Shown: positions 27,097-34,444 of the stretch, piece by piece | Layout of the letters: the number at the start of each line of letters is the position of its first letter | How positions within the stretch are numbered: position 1 is the stretch's first letter | NCBI GenBank assembly: GCA_018897105.1 | Contig: JAHILF010000031.1 | Location: 7,632 to 71,631 of the forward strand | Origin: Pseudomonadota bacterium | Lineage (GTDB): Bacteria; Desulfobacterota; Desulfobulbia; Desulfobulbales; SURF-16 | Direction: 5' to 3' | DNA: 64,000 nt | Position numbers and translations under genes: made by a program | The notes under the pieces: model-generated | The model's input: only the letters and a program-made list of their open reading frames with translations | What the model was told of the DNA's origin: nothing | The model's database searches: none

Positions 27097-28089
27097 CTAC
27101 AGGCGATCCAAGGGGCTTTGCAGGCGCTGAATATCCCGAGCCATGACATGGGTATAAATCTCTGTGGTCTTCACATCCGCATGGCCGAGGAGATCCTGGA
27201 GTACCCGTATGTTCACCCCCTGTTCCAGCAGATGGGTGGCGAAACTGTGGCGCAGGGTATGACAGCCGATTTTCTTGGTGATCCCAGCCCGTTGCGCCGC
27301 TACCTTTACCGCCTTTTGCAGCCCGGATTCAAGGACATGGTGGCGCATCTCTTTGCCGGAACGAGGATCAACGGAACGTTTTTGTGCCGGGAAAACCCAT
27401 TGCCAGCCGGTCTCCCGGGCGGCGTTGGGGTATTTTCTGGCCAGGGCATCGGGGATGTAGACTTCGCCGAAGCCTGCCTCCAGGTCCAGGTGATGGAGTT
27501 CTTTTACCTCCTCGACCTGAGCGCGCAGCTCATCCTGCAGATTCCGGGGTAGGATGGTGGTCCGGTCCTTGCCACCTTTGCCGCCCCGGACGAAGATAAG
27601 ATTCTGGCCGAAATCAACGTCCTGAATGCGCAGCCGGATGCATTCCATCAGACGCAGACCGCCGCCGTAGAGAATTCTGGCCATCAGGGCATGTTTGCCC
27701 GACATGGCCGCCAGCAGGCGCTGGACCTCCGACTGGGTCAGCACCGTTGGCGGCCTGGGCAGGCGTTTACTGCGGACGGGGGCGATCTCTCCGTCAATGG
27801 GCTGGTCGAGCACATCCCGATATAGGAAGACCAGCGCATTCAAGGCCTGCCGTTGCGTCGAGGCAGACACCTTGCCTTCGGTGGCGAGATGGGAAAGGAA
27901 ACTCTCCACATCCTTCCCCTGAAGCTTGGAGGGATGGGTTTTGCCGCCGAAGTGGTAAATATAGCGAAGAATCCACTGGCAATAGGTCTGTTCGGTTCGG
28001 TAGGCATAGTGATGGTACCGGAGAACCTCACGAACCTGGTCCATGAGTTTGAGTTTTGGATTGGGCAGGAATTTTGGTTTCTTTTCCAT
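27097..28089 (-). CDS. intI: Integron integrase
   Basis: HYAYRTEQTY, SASTQRQALNAL, YGGGLRLME, GKGGKDR, IntI-specific insert (VYIPDALARKYP...WQWVFP...RHH), HTLRHSFATHLL and TTEIYTHV. Confidence 0.97.
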   Translation of the reverse strand: MEKKPKFLPNPKLKLMDQVREVLRYHHYAYRTEQTYCQWILRYIYHFGGKTHPSKLQGKDVESFLSHLATEGKVSASTQRQALNALVFLYRDVLDQPIDGEIAPVRSKRLPRPPTVLTQSEVQRLLAAMSGKHALMARILYGGGLRLMECIRLRIQDVDFGQNLIFVRGGKGGKDRTTILPRNLQDELRAQVEEVKELHHLDLEAGFGEVYIPDALARKYPNAARETGWQWVFPAQKRSVDPRSGKEMRHHVLESGLQKAVKVAAQRAGITKKIGCHTLRHSFATHLLEQGVNIRVLQDLLGHADVKTTEIYTHVMARDIQRLQSPLDRL

Positions 28090-28101
28090 GATTCATACTT
28101 T

Positions 28102-28264
28102 AATATCGCAATAAGCGGAAAATCGCAAGCGATTATGTAATAAGTGGACAGCATGGAGTCTGATTTTCCATGTTTTATATTTCAATATCATAATAAGTGG
28201 AAATTCTGTCCATCTATATAAGGTAATATGATGGACAGCTTTCCGCTTATTACACTGTTAGTGC
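28102..28264 (+). other. attI site with repeated putative integrase-binding boxes
   Basis: Core G/TTAGTGC at 28257 matches R'' GCACTAAC of the first attC. AATAAGYGGA at 28110, 28139 and 28192, with an inverted copy at 28242. Confidence 0.75.
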
Positions 28265-28268
28265 CTGA

Positions 28269-28589
28269 ATGAATAATCCATTTGCAAGAATAATATTTGC
28301 TGTAATTTTTTTTCTTCTCCTTTGTGGGCTCTATTATTTGAGCGAAGGCACTGGTTTAGAAACTTTGATTTTTCTTGTAATTGGAGCTGTAATAGGAATT
28401 CCGAAGGGCCTTGCTCTTCCTATGAGTTTTACATACAAATTGGGGTATATTTTTGTTTTGGCTGGGTCAATTACTGCAATAACTGTAGGAATTAGAACAA
28501 AAAAAAATTTATTGGGACAATTGCTGGTATTTTTAGGAGTAGCAATTTGGTTTGCCTGTGGTTTTATAGGAATAATAATTGAAGGGTAA
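28269..28589 (+). CDS. Cassette 1: small multi-TM membrane protein of unknown function
   Basis: ATG about 12 bp after the attI core; about 4 hydrophobic helices; AT-rich; followed by attC. Confidence 0.8.
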   Translation: MNNPFARIIFAVIFFLLLCGLYYLSEGTGLETLIFLVIGAVIGIPKGLALPMSFTYKLGYIFVLAGSITAITVGIRTKKNLLGQLLVFLGVAIWFACGFIGIIIEG

Positions 28590-28611
28590 TATGTTGAAAT
28601 TTAACAAAAAA

Positions 28612-28698
28612 GCACTAACCAACACATCCACCAGACCAGAATGGCCTATGTTTTCTTATGCATCACCGTGGCTGGCTGGTGATGTTGGTCGATATGTG
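28612..28698 (+). other. attC site 1
   Basis: R'' GCACTAAC, 5-nt spacer, L'' CATCCACC (extra base), L' GGTGATG, 6-nt spacer, R' GATATGTG. Confidence 0.85.
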
Positions 28699-28707
28699 TA
28701 AAAAACT

Positions 28708-29448
28708 ATGGAAAGCTGCCTTGACCCTCTATTTGAATCGATATTCCCAATCATATTTTATGATGAGAAGGATTTGGTGAATGTTGCTGGCACATCAATA
28801 CTTGTTGAGCATAAAGGACAAAATTATCTATTAACGGCAGCGCATGTTCTTAAAGATCCAGGCAGCAAGTATCATCTATATGTTTTACTACGAGGTAAAG
28901 CTGTTCATCTTCATGATCCTGCGTTCATGAGTAAAATTCAAAAAACAGATATTGATACCGCCTTTTTCCCTTTGGCTTTCCATCCGACCTTAGAGACTCA
29001 TTTAACTGGTTATAAGACGATTACTCTCAAAGAATATGATGGAGATATAACGTATAGCAGAGAGCATTATTTTGTATTCGGCTTTCCATGGCGCAGAGCA
29101 AAATTCAACCGGACAGATAAGGAACTGAACGCTCGACCATTACAATATTTTACAGACATCATTGATGATAGTTCTTTGTTTTCAAAATACAACAGGCCTA
29201 AAGAAAGCCATATTTTGGTTCAATATAATCCAAAAACAACCACAAATAGGAATAAAATTAAACAATTGGCCCCACACCCTCATGGCATAAGTGGCGGTCC
29301 ATTGTTTAAAGCTCTTATTAACGATAGAGACGAAGTAATTCTTTTGATTCTTGAAGGACTTTTGATTGAGTGGAAAGACTCCCGTGTGATTGTCGCTACC
29401 AAAAAAGAAAAAATCCGAAATTTTATTGATGGTAAACCATTGCATTGA
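28708..29448 (+). CDS. Cassette 2 gene A: trypsin-like serine protease, no signal peptide
   Basis: Catalytic-triad motifs LLTAAHV, DIDTAF and GISGGPLF, plus FGFP. Confidence 0.85.
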   Translation: MESCLDPLFESIFPIIFYDEKDLVNVAGTSILVEHKGQNYLLTAAHVLKDPGSKYHLYVLLRGKAVHLHDPAFMSKIQKTDIDTAFFPLAFHPTLETHLTGYKTITLKEYDGDITYSREHYFVFGFPWRRAKFNRTDKELNARPLQYFTDIIDDSSLFSKYNRPKESHILVQYNPKTTTNRNKIKQLAPHPHGISGGPLFKALINDRDEVILLILEGLLIEWKDSRVIVATKKEKIRNFIDGKPLH

Positions 29449-29465
29449 CAGCAGGGGCTTAAAAA

Positions 29466-30227
29466 ATGACTAAAGACGAATGGAAAGAGCTTGTCAAAGG
29501 AATCTGTAACCAAAAAATTCTACCAAAACTTCGAAAAATTCATAGGAAGTATCACCCTTTTGAAATTTATGAAAGATTCCCATTCGGTGATAGAAGAATC
29601 TATAAGTCATCGCGCACAATACGCTTTATCGAAGAAAATTTTGATGATGACGACGATCTTACCAAAATTTTCAACACAGAATATCTCGGTAATACGCTTG
29701 ACAATCTTCGATGGGGTATCGAAAACAGCAATCGTCTCGTACTCAAAACTGGAATATCCGATGTTATCGAAGAGTTCTTTGAAGAAATAGTAGATGGGAT
29801 GGAAATTTCAGATATCCCGAATGTTGATTTTGATGCATTGAGGGAAGCTGGAAGCCAAGATCCGAAAAGTGAAATCCTTGTCTCAATGATCAGGACGAAA
29901 AAAATCAAAATGAAACTTCGTTACAATTCAAATTTGAATGAGAGTGAAATGCGCTACTCTCTTCATGAGAGCGAGAAAATAGTAGTTAGAAAAAAAGAGC
30001 AGTTAGAACACTGTGACAAAGATAACCCTCCCACTAAAAAGAAAATATTTAAGGGCTTAGGTGGGATATGCCGTGGGGCTATTCTAACGGGGGTTGATAT
30101 CGGTCTTTTGGCTGGGCTTTGGCCAGTTCCCCTTTCACCTGACACTACTACAGTCGGCGCGGTTGCATCTATTACTACCGGAGTTGGAGACATCATGATA
30201 GCTATTGGTGAGCTTCGGGGTGAATAA
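29466..30227 (+). CDS. Cassette 2 gene B: hypothetical protein with Gly-rich hydrophobic C-terminal hairpin
   Basis: 253-aa ORF 17 bp after the protease; charged body, then two hydrophobic Gly-rich segments. Confidence 0.8.
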   Translation: MTKDEWKELVKGICNQKILPKLRKIHRKYHPFEIYERFPFGDRRIYKSSRTIRFIEENFDDDDDLTKIFNTEYLGNTLDNLRWGIENSNRLVLKTGISDVIEEFFEEIVDGMEISDIPNVDFDALREAGSQDPKSEILVSMIRTKKIKMKLRYNSNLNESEMRYSLHESEKIVVRKKEQLEHCDKDNPPTKKKIFKGLGGICRGAILTGVDIGLLAGLWPVPLSPDTTTVGAVASITTGVGDIMIAIGELRGE

Positions 30228-30240
30228 AAAACAGAAGAAT

Positions 30241-30258
30241 CACATATCAAGTCAATTC
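30241..30258 (+). other. attC site 2, 5' remnant interrupted by IS256
   Basis: R'' CACATATC (exact complement of GATATGTG at 28691), spacer AAGTC, partial L'', then the IS left end. Confidence 0.75.
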
Positions 30259-31800
30259 GGTAGTGTAAAATTCTTTCTGTAAATTCCGTTGAGGCTGGTT
30301 ACAAAAAAGCAAGCCACGACTTATCTTTCCGTTTTTCACCCACCACGGTCAAAATCAGAAGGAGATCATCATGGCTTGCTTAACACAGGATACTCAATTT
30401 GGAGAGCTTTTGGAACTTGTAGCGTCAAAAGGGTTAGATGAAATTTCGGAGCCTGTTGCGCTGCTTTTCAATCTCGCAATGCGCTTGGAAAGAGAAAAAT
30501 ATCTCAAAGCCGGCGCCTATGAACGAACAGAGCAAAGGGAGGGCTATGCCAATGGCTTTAAGCCAAAGACGATCAAGACCAGGTTTGGCCAACTTGACCT
30601 TGCCGTGCCTCAGGTCAGAGACGGCGGCTTCTACCCCAATAGTCTTGAAAAAGGGATGCGTTCCGAACGTGCCTTGAAACTGGCCCTGGCTGAAATGTAT
30701 ATCCATGGCGTTTCCACCCGGAAAGTGGCGCGGATTACAGAACAAATGTGCGGCTTTGAAATCTCATCTGGCCAAGTGAGCAGGGCCTCTGCTGACCTTG
30801 ATGATCTCTTGGAAAAATGGCGAAATCGGCCATTGGGCTGCTTCCCTTATGTCTATTTGGATGCCATGTATGAAAAAGTTCGCCAAGGAGGTCAGGTCGT
30901 TGACTGTGCTGCATTGATTGCTATTGGCGTCGATGATACTGGCAGACGCCAAGTCTTGGGCGCCTCTGTCAAATTATCGGAACACGAGGTGCACTGGCGC
31001 TCGTTTCTGAATAGTTTGCAGAGCCGTGGGCTGCATGGCGTGCATTTATTTATAAGTGATGATCATGCCGGTCTGAAGGCTGCAAGAAAAGCGATTTTCC
31101 CAGCAACGCCTTGGCAACGGTGCCAGTTTCATCTACAACAAAATGCGCAGTCTTATGTCCCCAAAAAGTCATTAAAAAAAGGGGTGGCAGCGGAAATTCG
31201 GGCCATTTTTAATGCCCCGAGTGATACCGAAGCAAAACGCCTCGTGGGGTTGTTTGTTGATAAATATGAAAAGGTTGCCCCTCCTCTGTCTCAGTGGGCA
31301 GAAAAAAATATCCCGGAAGGGCTTGCTGCCATGCAGTTTCCCGAAGAGCACCAGAGGAAAATCCGAACTTCCAATATGCTTGAGCGGGTAAACAAAGAAG
31401 TCAGGAGGAGAACAAGGGTCGCTGGACTGTTTCCCAATGAAACATCATGCCTTCGGCTTATTAGTGCTGTACTTATGGAAATATCAGATGACTGGGCAAC
31501 AGGGAAAAAGTATTTAAAATTATGCCAATAGATGGCTCTTGGAGTCAGAAGTTTTTACTGCTTGCATACCCCTTCAACGCTTGAATCGGCTAGGGCCTCT
31601 TCCGTGCAACCAAGCTGTCGTATGCTCAAAGCGGATGGTATACAAGCAGTAAAAACTCACGCTCGTGCCTCCTTGCTCGTGATCCCCGGTTAAATGTTCA
31701 CGAGCGTAACCCCGACAAGAGATGAACTGTCGTTTGCGATATGAAAAAACGGGTGAGACCCGGGACGATTTGATTTTTACAGAAAAGAAGTTGCTTTATC
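30259..31800 (+). mobile_element. IS256-family insertion sequence
   Basis: Imperfect TIRs GGTAGTGTAAAATTCTTTCTGTAAA / TTTACAGAAAAGAAGTTGCTTTATC; no target duplication visible. Confidence 0.88.
30371..31531 (+). CDS. IS256-family DDE transposase
   Basis: EMYIHGVSTRKV, YLDAMYEKVR, ISDDHAGL, WQRCQFH and RTSNMLERVNKEVRRRT. Confidence 0.96.
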   Translation: MACLTQDTQFGELLELVASKGLDEISEPVALLFNLAMRLEREKYLKAGAYERTEQREGYANGFKPKTIKTRFGQLDLAVPQVRDGGFYPNSLEKGMRSERALKLALAEMYIHGVSTRKVARITEQMCGFEISSGQVSRASADLDDLLEKWRNRPLGCFPYVYLDAMYEKVRQGGQVVDCAALIAIGVDDTGRRQVLGASVKLSEHEVHWRSFLNSLQSRGLHGVHLFISDDHAGLKAARKAIFPATPWQRCQFHLQQNAQSYVPKKSLKKGVAAEIRAIFNAPSDTEAKRLVGLFVDKYEKVAPPLSQWAEKNIPEGLAAMQFPEEHQRKIRTSNMLERVNKEVRRRTRVAGLFPNETSCLRLISAVLMEISDDWATGKKYLKLCQ

Positions 31801-31922
31801 CAATACAAGAAAAAGACTTTGATATCGTGTTGCATTTTTTAAGAAAGTGGTGGCTAAATCATATCAGAATTGAAGACGTAAAATATGCATCTTATGTAAA
31901 AGAAAAACTTGAGGCGATCTAA
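31801..31922 (+). pseudogene. C-terminal fragment of a hemerythrin-like cassette gene
   Basis: FLRKWWLNHIRIEDVKY matches the bacteriohemerythrin C-terminal W..HI..ED..Y motif; 5' part missing; followed by attC. Confidence 0.75.
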
Positions 31923-31930
31923 TAGCAAAT

Positions 31931-32062
31931 CAGCTAACAAGGCACTGCACTGGAAAAAAAGGGGACAGGGGTTTGGGTTACTTCTCGGTACGCACCATGT
32001 TTATCTCTAATTCTATACATTTTGCTACGCACCCTTTTTTCCAGTGAGCTTTAACGTTCGAC
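31931..32062 (+). other. attC site 3
   Basis: R'' CAGCTAAC, spacer AAGGC, L'' ACTGCACT, stem GGAAAAAA/TTTTTTCC, L' AGTGAGC, 6-nt spacer, R' GTTCGAC. Confidence 0.88.
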
Positions 32063-33875: not shown

Positions 33876-34157
33876 ATGGGCAAGTTACCAAACATCATTC
33901 CGGTGAGCGATTTGAGGCAGGATGCCGCCAAACTCCTGAAACAATTGCGTAACAATAAAGAACCTTTGATTATTACACAAAGAGGTCGGGCAACAGCGGT
34001 CATAATCGGTGTGGATGCCTATGAGCAATCTGAACACGAAAAAGAACTTTTGCGTCTTTTAGTAAAGGGAGAGAGGGAAATAGAAATAGGCGAAGGATAC
34101 GACTTGGATACTGTCCTTGCCGAAGCCGACGTCCTTTTAGCCAAGGAACCTTCGTGA
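33876..34157 (+). CDS. Phd/YefM-family antitoxin
   Basis: IIPVSDLRQDAA and PLIITQRGRATAV. Confidence 0.93.
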   Translation: MGKLPNIIPVSDLRQDAAKLLKQLRNNKEPLIITQRGRATAVIIGVDAYEQSEHEKELLRLLVKGEREIEIGEGYDLDTVLAEADVLLAKEPS

Positions 34158-34444
34158 AGGTTCAATTTACACCTTCTGCCCGAACCCAATTTCTTTCCGC
34201 GCTATCTTATATCCGAAAGGACAAACCTTCTGCAGCAGTCAGTTTTCGGAATCAAGCTGAAAAAATTCTGCGCCGGCTTGAGGATTTTCCTGAATCCGGA
34301 AGAATCATACCGGAATTTCCTGATCTCCCTTACCGAGAGGTGATTCTATCGCCGTACCGGTTTTTTTACAAAATCAAAGGCGATGTCGTTTGGGTTGTTG
34401 CAGTGTGGCATGGCGCGCAGCTTCCAAAGAAGCCGGTAACTTAA
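34154..34444 (+). CDS. RelE/ParE-family toxin
   Basis: VQFTPSA, LEDFPESGR, YRFFY and VAVWHGA; 4-bp overlap with the antitoxin. Confidence 0.93.
   Translation: MKVQFTPSARTQFLSALSYIRKDKPSAAVSFRNQAEKILRRLEDFPESGRIIPEFPDLPYREVILSPYRFFYKIKGDVVWVVAVWHGAQLPKKPVT

Follow-up and report, generated by a model that had tools for sequence, protein, structure and literature searches.

A probable gene cassette with matched GAT and ATC recombination-core triplets in a chromosomal integron

Results

The integron and its first cassette

The window analysed here is a 64,000-nucleotide stretch of contig C152, which belongs to a draft genome (G000) in 177 contigs, and it contains an integron. The integron is complete, consisting of an integrase gene, an attI region and at least one attC-bounded cassette downstream, and at 28 kb the GC content drops from about 0.58 to 0.36. 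The region from the integrase gene to the first attC site is organised as follows.

27097-28089, minus strand: intI, integron integrase gene, 330 aa (TIGR02249, PF00589, PF13495)
28090-28264, plus strand: attI region with repeated AATAAGYGGA motifs, read directly; core GTTAGTGC at 28257-28264
28258-28691, plus strand: cassette 1, start TTAGTGC, R'' GCACTAAC, canonical ends
28269-28589, plus strand: open reading frame of cassette 1, 106 aa, no family
28612-28698, plus strand: attC1, 87 nt; boxes, arms and spacing read directly, homologs in 14 other places
28612-28619, plus strand: attC1 R'', GCACTAAC
28620-28624, plus strand: attC1 5' spacer, CAACA
28625-28639, plus strand: attC1 L'' arm, CATC[C]ACCAG[A]CCAG
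28640-28671, plus strand: attC1 loop, 32 nt
28672-28684, plus strand: attC1 L' arm, CTGGCTGGTGATG, pairs with the L'' arm
28685-28690, plus strand: attC1 3' spacer, TTGGTC
28691-28698, plus strand: attC1 R', GATATGTG

The intI product matches the TIGR02249 profile with 440.1 bits (cutoff 265) over model positions 1-315 of 315, and its alignment with VchIntIA (2a3v; E 5e-94) is full-length. The residues R146, K171, HxxR and the tyrosine, counted by hand on the 2a3v alignment, are all present, and the integrase is intact. Beyond the window copy (100%), the genome encodes two intI paralogs, on contigs C118 (9743-10687, 84% identity) and C151 (33550-34500, 53%). The predicted attI adjoins intI in divergent orientation. 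Its core reads CACTG↓TTAGTGC, with the crossover (arrow) between 28257 and 28258 (G↓TT), and is an 8/8 complement of the cassette 1 R''. A closely similar attI adjoins the 84% identical paralog on C118. Repeats like those of attI, but without intI, were furthermore observed on two other contigs (C136, 3843-4000, and C24, 5723-5761), one of which adjoins a 30% identical tyrosine recombinase.

Logan contigs of two sequencing runs cover this region. Run X1, in which 0.99 of the sampled words are present, is probably the source of the assembly; X2 is another sample of the same study. Both contain a second continuation past attI after 28261 (CACTGTTAG; 28257-28261), at a depth of 9.5 versus 11.8, which is absent from the binned genome G000. 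It suggests that some members of the population, or a close strain, have a different first cassette at this attI, and hints at cassette turnover in the population.

The open reading frame of cassette 1 has no Pfam or NCBIfam match above cutoff. attC1 contains an L''/L' stem flanked by spacers and interrupted by two one-base bulges, such that the extrahelical bases are C and A on the top strand, corresponding to G and T on the bottom strand. The conserved AAC...GTT pair is not found in this site, as R'' carries AAC and R' carries GAT. Within the R' triplet the G belongs to attC1 itself, and the AT to the next cassette; in the resulting hybrid R box, the A of R'' lies opposite the A of GAT. The 3' spacer TTGGTC can base-pair with ACCAA on the 5' side, and a spacer that is normally open is therefore paired in the predicted fold. 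The spacers of the 14 attC1 homologs differ from TTGGTC (e.g. TAAAC, TGAAAC).

An Rfam search of 26000-48000 gave no family match, and none to an attC model. A toxin-antitoxin pair (Phd/YefM antitoxin, ParE toxin) is located at 33876-34444, downstream of the cassettes that can be recognised, and a hairpin scan placed no attC beside it.

The attC1 family fixes the position of R'

attC1-type sites were collected by BLAST and pattern searches in 400 genomes of the class. The resulting alignment contains 15 members from 14 genomes, i.e. the window and 14 other places; a partial match (L100) was excluded due to the absence of the 3' arm. The stem, bulges and spacers are retained in the 15 members, and in all of them the L' arm is followed by a 5-6 nt spacer ending in C, then by R'. 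This shared spacing fixes R' and hence supports the register assigned in the window. The original prediction that the attC1 R' departs from GTT at the correct box spacing is thus borne out, with GTT found in 13 of the 15 members at the same spacing and GAT in two, the window and genome G033.

The G033 site (L092/L114, G033:C71) spans about 1482-1571 of the reverse complement and reads ..GTAAAC G↓ATAGAAC. It forms the right end of a solo cassette of about 230 bp, which is present twice in genome G225; no second attC was found within the 3-kb G033 locus. This second natural GAT R' seems to represent insertion at a GAT secondary site, judging from its sequence context.

An apparent 'CAC' R'' variant in genome G096 was rejected as the break is caused by an insertion. 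Here (L089, G096:C4, about 1100-1500 of the reverse complement), an attC1-type R'' is interrupted before ..AC CAGCA by a sequence ending ..GCCCGTGCCGGGCGTAC, which may be the 3' end of an attC-targeting group II intron.

Other searches for sites of this kind were less productive. A 1661-nt stretch searched in 40 relatives gave the attC1 homolog in G007 as sole match, and an energy-based hairpin scan for attC was too noisy. Of the sites in the window, an arm-alignment scan with canonical cores located attC3 alone; C118 and C151 gave one site each. With relaxed cores, the same type of scan gave 22 matches versus 10-20 in five shuffles, and is unusable as a survey of variant cores.

Cassette 2 carries the complement of its start at its own R''

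The second cassette starts at the attC1 crossover and contains two open reading frames.

28692-30258, plus strand: cassette 2 as surviving, start ATATGTG, end the attC2 stump
28708-29448, plus strand: ORF2a, weak Trypsin_2 match below cutoff
29466-30227, plus strand: ORF2b, matches no family
30241-30258, plus strand: attC2 stump, with R'' CACATATC at 30241-30248, spacer AAGTC, then AATTC

The C-terminus of ORF2b is conserved, glycine-rich and hydrophobic. The box CACATATC begins 13 nt past the ORF2b stop codon, and is an exact 8/8 complement of the attC1 R' GATATGTG. It was originally proposed that the cassette ends in the exact complement of R' at its own R'' position, and this stands: the probability of finding an exact complement by chance within 40-60 nt after the stop is 7e-4 to 1.1e-3 at the composition of the cassette, i.e. 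about 0.001. The frequency of the 8-mer complementary to R' is 7.9e-6 per nt per strand in the genome, with 5 copies in the window on both strands versus 1.25 expected.

An 8/8 match between start and R'' is also seen for three canonical cassettes of the same genome, one in the window (GTTAGTGC/GCACTAAC) and two on C118 (GTTAGACC/GGTCTAAC and GTTAGCAT/ATGCTAAC). Cassette 2 therefore has the start expected of a gene cassette, complementary after the crossover to its own R''. A complete 3' attC is not present, as R'' and 10 nt remain before an insertion sequence at 30259. The base change itself affects the second base of the triplet, which is A and not T at the left boundary (G↓AT...), and T and not A in R'' (..AT↓C).

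Relatives of ORF2b have canonical ends

A total of 29 ORF2b relatives were found in the protein collection, the best (P0001) with 91% identity, five proteins with 77%, and P0002-P0007 within 74-77%. The cassette ends could be compared with two loci: L128, which has both the start and R'', and L002, which has R''. L128 (a Syntrophobacteraceae MAG, 1258-2113) contains an ORF2b homolog (69% amino-acid identity) as a one-gene cassette. It starts ..AAACATT G↓TTATGTGTAAACTAT, compared with ..TTGGTC G↓ATATGTGTAAAAAACTAT in the window, and this start is canonical (G↓TTATGTGTAAA..CTAT). At its other end the L128 cassette reads ACACAAC AACGG, and the attC that comes next is intact (R' GTTAGGCG). L002 consists of the last 26 ORF2b codons and CACATAAC AAGTC, while a third locus, L127 (590-985), is an internal ORF2b fragment with neither end.

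The state in the relatives is hence canonical at each box that can be read, with GTT at the start in one of one (L128) and AAC in R'' in two of two (L128 and L002). The window boxes differ from CACATAAC (L002) and GTTATGTG (L128) at the paired position only. As the relatives are canonical, the GAT/ATC pair is the derived state. Furthermore, homology between the window and L128 starts at the G, with the preceding bases unlike (TTGGTC versus AAACATT), as predicted for a cassette boundary. Both boxes thus read as cassette boundaries, and the paired T:A to A:T change between them is taken as real on the evidence of these alignments.

The start motif of L128 is the motif that precedes ORF2a in the window, yet L128 carries ORF2b alone; ORF2a was therefore gained or lost within the cassette. 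No relative of ORF2a was found in the genome contigs. A protein search with ORF2b recovered the L002 fragment only from the genome contigs and nothing from the metagenome contigs, and a DNA pattern of the cassette 2 3' end gave 0 matches in the metagenome contigs. Among the matches listed, an alignment query for cassette relatives gave the L127 fragment only. A back-translated pattern of the ORF2b C-terminus identified L128 and L002 in the genome contigs, and 0 matches in the viral contigs. Across 400 genomes of the phylum and 400 of the class, ORF2b was present in the source genome G000 only, and the searched collections yielded no further copy of the GAT/ATC cassette with different surroundings.

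An insertion sequence truncates attC2

The attC2 stump is directly followed by an insertion sequence and the remains of a further cassette.

30259 to about 31801, plus strand: probable IS256-family insertion sequence, ends placed by comparison with L003, L004, L008 and L011
30371-31531, plus strand: Mutator-family transposase of this element (PF00872, E 2e-107)
31802-32062, plus strand: what is left of a further cassette, with an open frame up to the stop at 31922 and attC3 behind it
31932-32062, plus strand: attC3, R'' AGCTAAC, R' GTTCGAC

The left end of the element is at 30259 (GGTAGTGTAAAATTCTTTCTGTAAAT) and recurs in another context in run X3; the right end lies near 31801 (..TTTTTACAGAAAAGAAGTTGCTTTATCC). 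Both ends resemble those of relatives, and no further copies were found in the assembly. Members of the IS256 family have a Mutator-type transposase and terminal inverted repeats, and generate a target duplication of 8-9 bp; no target duplication or direct repeat flanks the element in the window. About 270 nt (31532-31801) separate the transposase stop from the right end, compared with about 55 nt in relatives such as L004, and this 3' part contains a 21-nt inverted repeat (31550-31570 and 31637-31657) that is 95% complementary. The 39-aa remnant frame behind the element was considered as a hemerythrin C-terminus, which was dropped as there is no Pfam match.

The element cuts attC2 10 nt past R''. 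The remainder of attC2 and whatever came next have been lost, and exit of cassette 2 through its own site is therefore no longer possible.

Discussion

A GAT/ATC-core cassette probably recombined by IntI

The matched boxes, their position at the cassette boundaries and the canonical state in relatives indicate that cassette 2 is probably a genuine integron gene cassette with a paired transversion in its recombination core. The best reading of the locus, to which we attach a fair degree of confidence, is that a cassette with this GAT/ATC core was recombined by IntI. The original prediction of a natural GAT-core cassette integrated by IntI is hence upheld in part, as regards the paired change at the cassette boundaries, for which L128 and L002 provide the comparison, while the recombination step is a deduction from it.

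The most likely history of cassette 2 would comprise four steps, each reconstructed from the present arrangement. A circular cassette with an ATC/GAT core, the folded bottom strand of which would still form a fully paired 8-bp R box, may have been integrated by IntI at attI (G↓TT), creating the junction CACTG↓ATATGTG. Insertion of the canonical cassette 1 at this hybrid attI would then have generated attC1, with AAC in R'' opposite GAT in R'. Subsequently, an IS256-family element presumably inserted into attC2, and an adjacent deletion could have taken the rest of that site.

A mobile stage is central to this proposal. As long as the cassette is in the array, its two boxes belong to separate hairpins (R' to attC1, R'' to attC2), and a matched change can thus be selected only via the circular form. 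Without a mobile stage of this kind, such a change in both boxes is difficult to obtain. Recombination of a GAT core by IntI is plausible, as the published data on IntI1 mutants fit. The reading is limited by the fact that the sole full relative, L128, is distant (69%), and by the loss of attC2, with which the L boxes have gone. The array is moreover decaying, with an insertion sequence and a shortened neighbour cassette, which leaves room for neutral mutation.

Alternative explanations

It is this decay that underlies the foremost alternative, in which the cassette, once integrated into an array that was decaying and immobile, acquired two neutral point mutations independently of each other, and their complementarity is due to chance. 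We regard this as unlikely, but worth serious consideration. The array is degraded, with the insertion sequence in attC2, the target duplication absent and a shortened cassette behind; relatives of the cassette are often remnants (L002, L127), and the divergence from L128 is large (69% amino-acid identity). Against such accumulated change, the paired position is the sole difference per 8-nt box from the L002 and L128 sequences, and the triplet affected is the best-conserved part of attC sites according to the portions of the IntegronFinder paper considered (PMC4889954), as well as 13/15 conserved in the attC1 family. A second, matched hit with the complementary base would have a chance of about 1% or less, a rough estimate made by judgement rather than computed.

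Alternatively, cassette 1 could have inserted at a GAT secondary site in non-cassette DNA, as seems the case for the solo cassette of G033 with its right junction G↓ATAGAAC. Secondary sites follow GNT or GWT, with GAT preferred, in the parts of two papers drawn on here (PMC2811028, PMC3518468). This scenario is highly improbable for the window, since the left junction of cassette 1 is a canonical attI core, the sequence from ATATGTG on is homologous to the L128 cassette start, and an R'' partner is found at the end of cassette 2.

A change of register, with GTTGGTC (28684-28690) as the true attC1 R' and TTGGTC as the start of cassette 2, would remove the variant altogether. GTTGGTC agrees with GTTRRRY at 6/7 positions, GTTGG pairs with CCAAC in the predicted fold, and the window and its closest attC1 homolog (G007) part abruptly after GATGT. 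It is nevertheless scarcely credible, given that it leaves the R and L boxes without a spacer where in 15/15 family members R' is preceded by a variable spacer (5-6 nt, last base C), and that L128 shares the cassette start from G↓WTATGTG on, without TTGGTC.

An error in sequencing or assembly that affected either position or both, conceivable in a 177-contig draft, is negligible: the X1 contigs (record 5) span 28232-30400 and the X2 contigs (records 11, 14, 15) cover 28539-28888, 29842-30254 and 30230-30400, both boxes included, each with 0 differences from the window, although these are contigs from which rare variants are dropped rather than reads, X1 may be the source, and the two are not evolutionarily independent. 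The original prediction had named reads with GTT/AAC as one observation that would overturn it, and it is GAT/ATC that both sets of contigs contain.

Implications of a matched GAT/ATC core

With recombination of a GAT/ATC-core cassette by IntI as the preferred reading, a broader proposal can be formulated. ATC/GAT cassettes may circulate naturally among the integrons of sulfate-reducer-like bacteria and be recombined by IntI, in which case the triplet would represent a shared convention for exchangeability and not a mechanistic need. The core allele could also act as a lock that lowers excision of the cassette itself and of its upstream neighbour, since the R boxes that an ATC/GAT cassette forms with its two canonical neighbours are mismatched hybrids. 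This proposal is speculative, and we consider it rather doubtful at present.

Among the sequence features of integron recombination sites, the AAC/GTT triplet is the one regarded as fixed, and experiments in the laboratory led to the prediction that variation at its second position is allowed provided that both sides match. Cassette 2 provides field evidence for this prediction, with relatives canonical at both boxes and an intact integrase. No principle is changed by this, and cassette 2 has already been disabled by the insertion sequence. The locus does supply a concrete pair of sites, the matched ATC/GAT and the hybrid AAC x GAT, for the effect of mismatched R boxes on excision. As originally suggested, standard attC models may miss cassettes of this type, and the present AAC x GAT hybrid may excise poorly.

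Comparison with known integron sites

In comparison to canonical attC sites and cassettes (RYYYAAC...GTTRRRY), attC1 has the same R and L boxes, 5- and 6-nt spacers, two bulges and a length of 87 nt, and cassette 2 follows the same rule of complementarity between start and R''. The difference is the second base pair of the triplet, which is inverted in cassette 2 (ATC/GAT), and because of this inversion the R boxes shared with canonical neighbours are mismatched hybrids, with A opposite A in attC1.

Cassette insertion has reportedly also been described at attG sites, in a paper on these sites. Insertions at secondary (GNT/GWT) or attG sites have a G↓AT junction as in cassette 2. The odd base at a secondary site is that of the target, and has no R'' partner, whereas in cassette 2 the odd base is that of the cassette, and has one. 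The G033 site fits the secondary-site pattern better.

The closest parallels are engineered. In the parts of Frumerie et al. 2010 (PMC2811028) used here, attCaadA7 and attCVCRd with GTT changed to GAT and a complementary change reached or exceeded the wild-type frequency of IntI1-mediated recombination with attI1, matched GAT sites were cleaved in vitro, and a change in one partner only was tolerated; these data on GAT tolerance concern IntI1 and VchIntIA substrates, not the integrase of the window. The same parts cite GAT as a preferred secondary site, note the 'absolute conservation' of GTT in the natural sites then known, and propose that this conservation reflects exchangeability between integrons rather than chemistry. 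The triplet is likewise described as more conserved than other positions in the portion of the IntegronFinder paper considered (PMC4889954). In the full-text literature searched, a non-exhaustive set, no natural matched ATC/GAT attC was described.

As in cassette 2, the engineered attCaadA7 and attCVCRd sites have the second triplet base changed, with the change matched across the R box. They differ in being laboratory constructs assayed with IntI1, whereas the cassette 2 pair is natural, is known from sequence, and belongs to an uncultured bacterium that carries it in a chromosomal integron. Cassette 2, an element of a known kind, is thus the natural counterpart of a variant that had been predicted and built in the laboratory.
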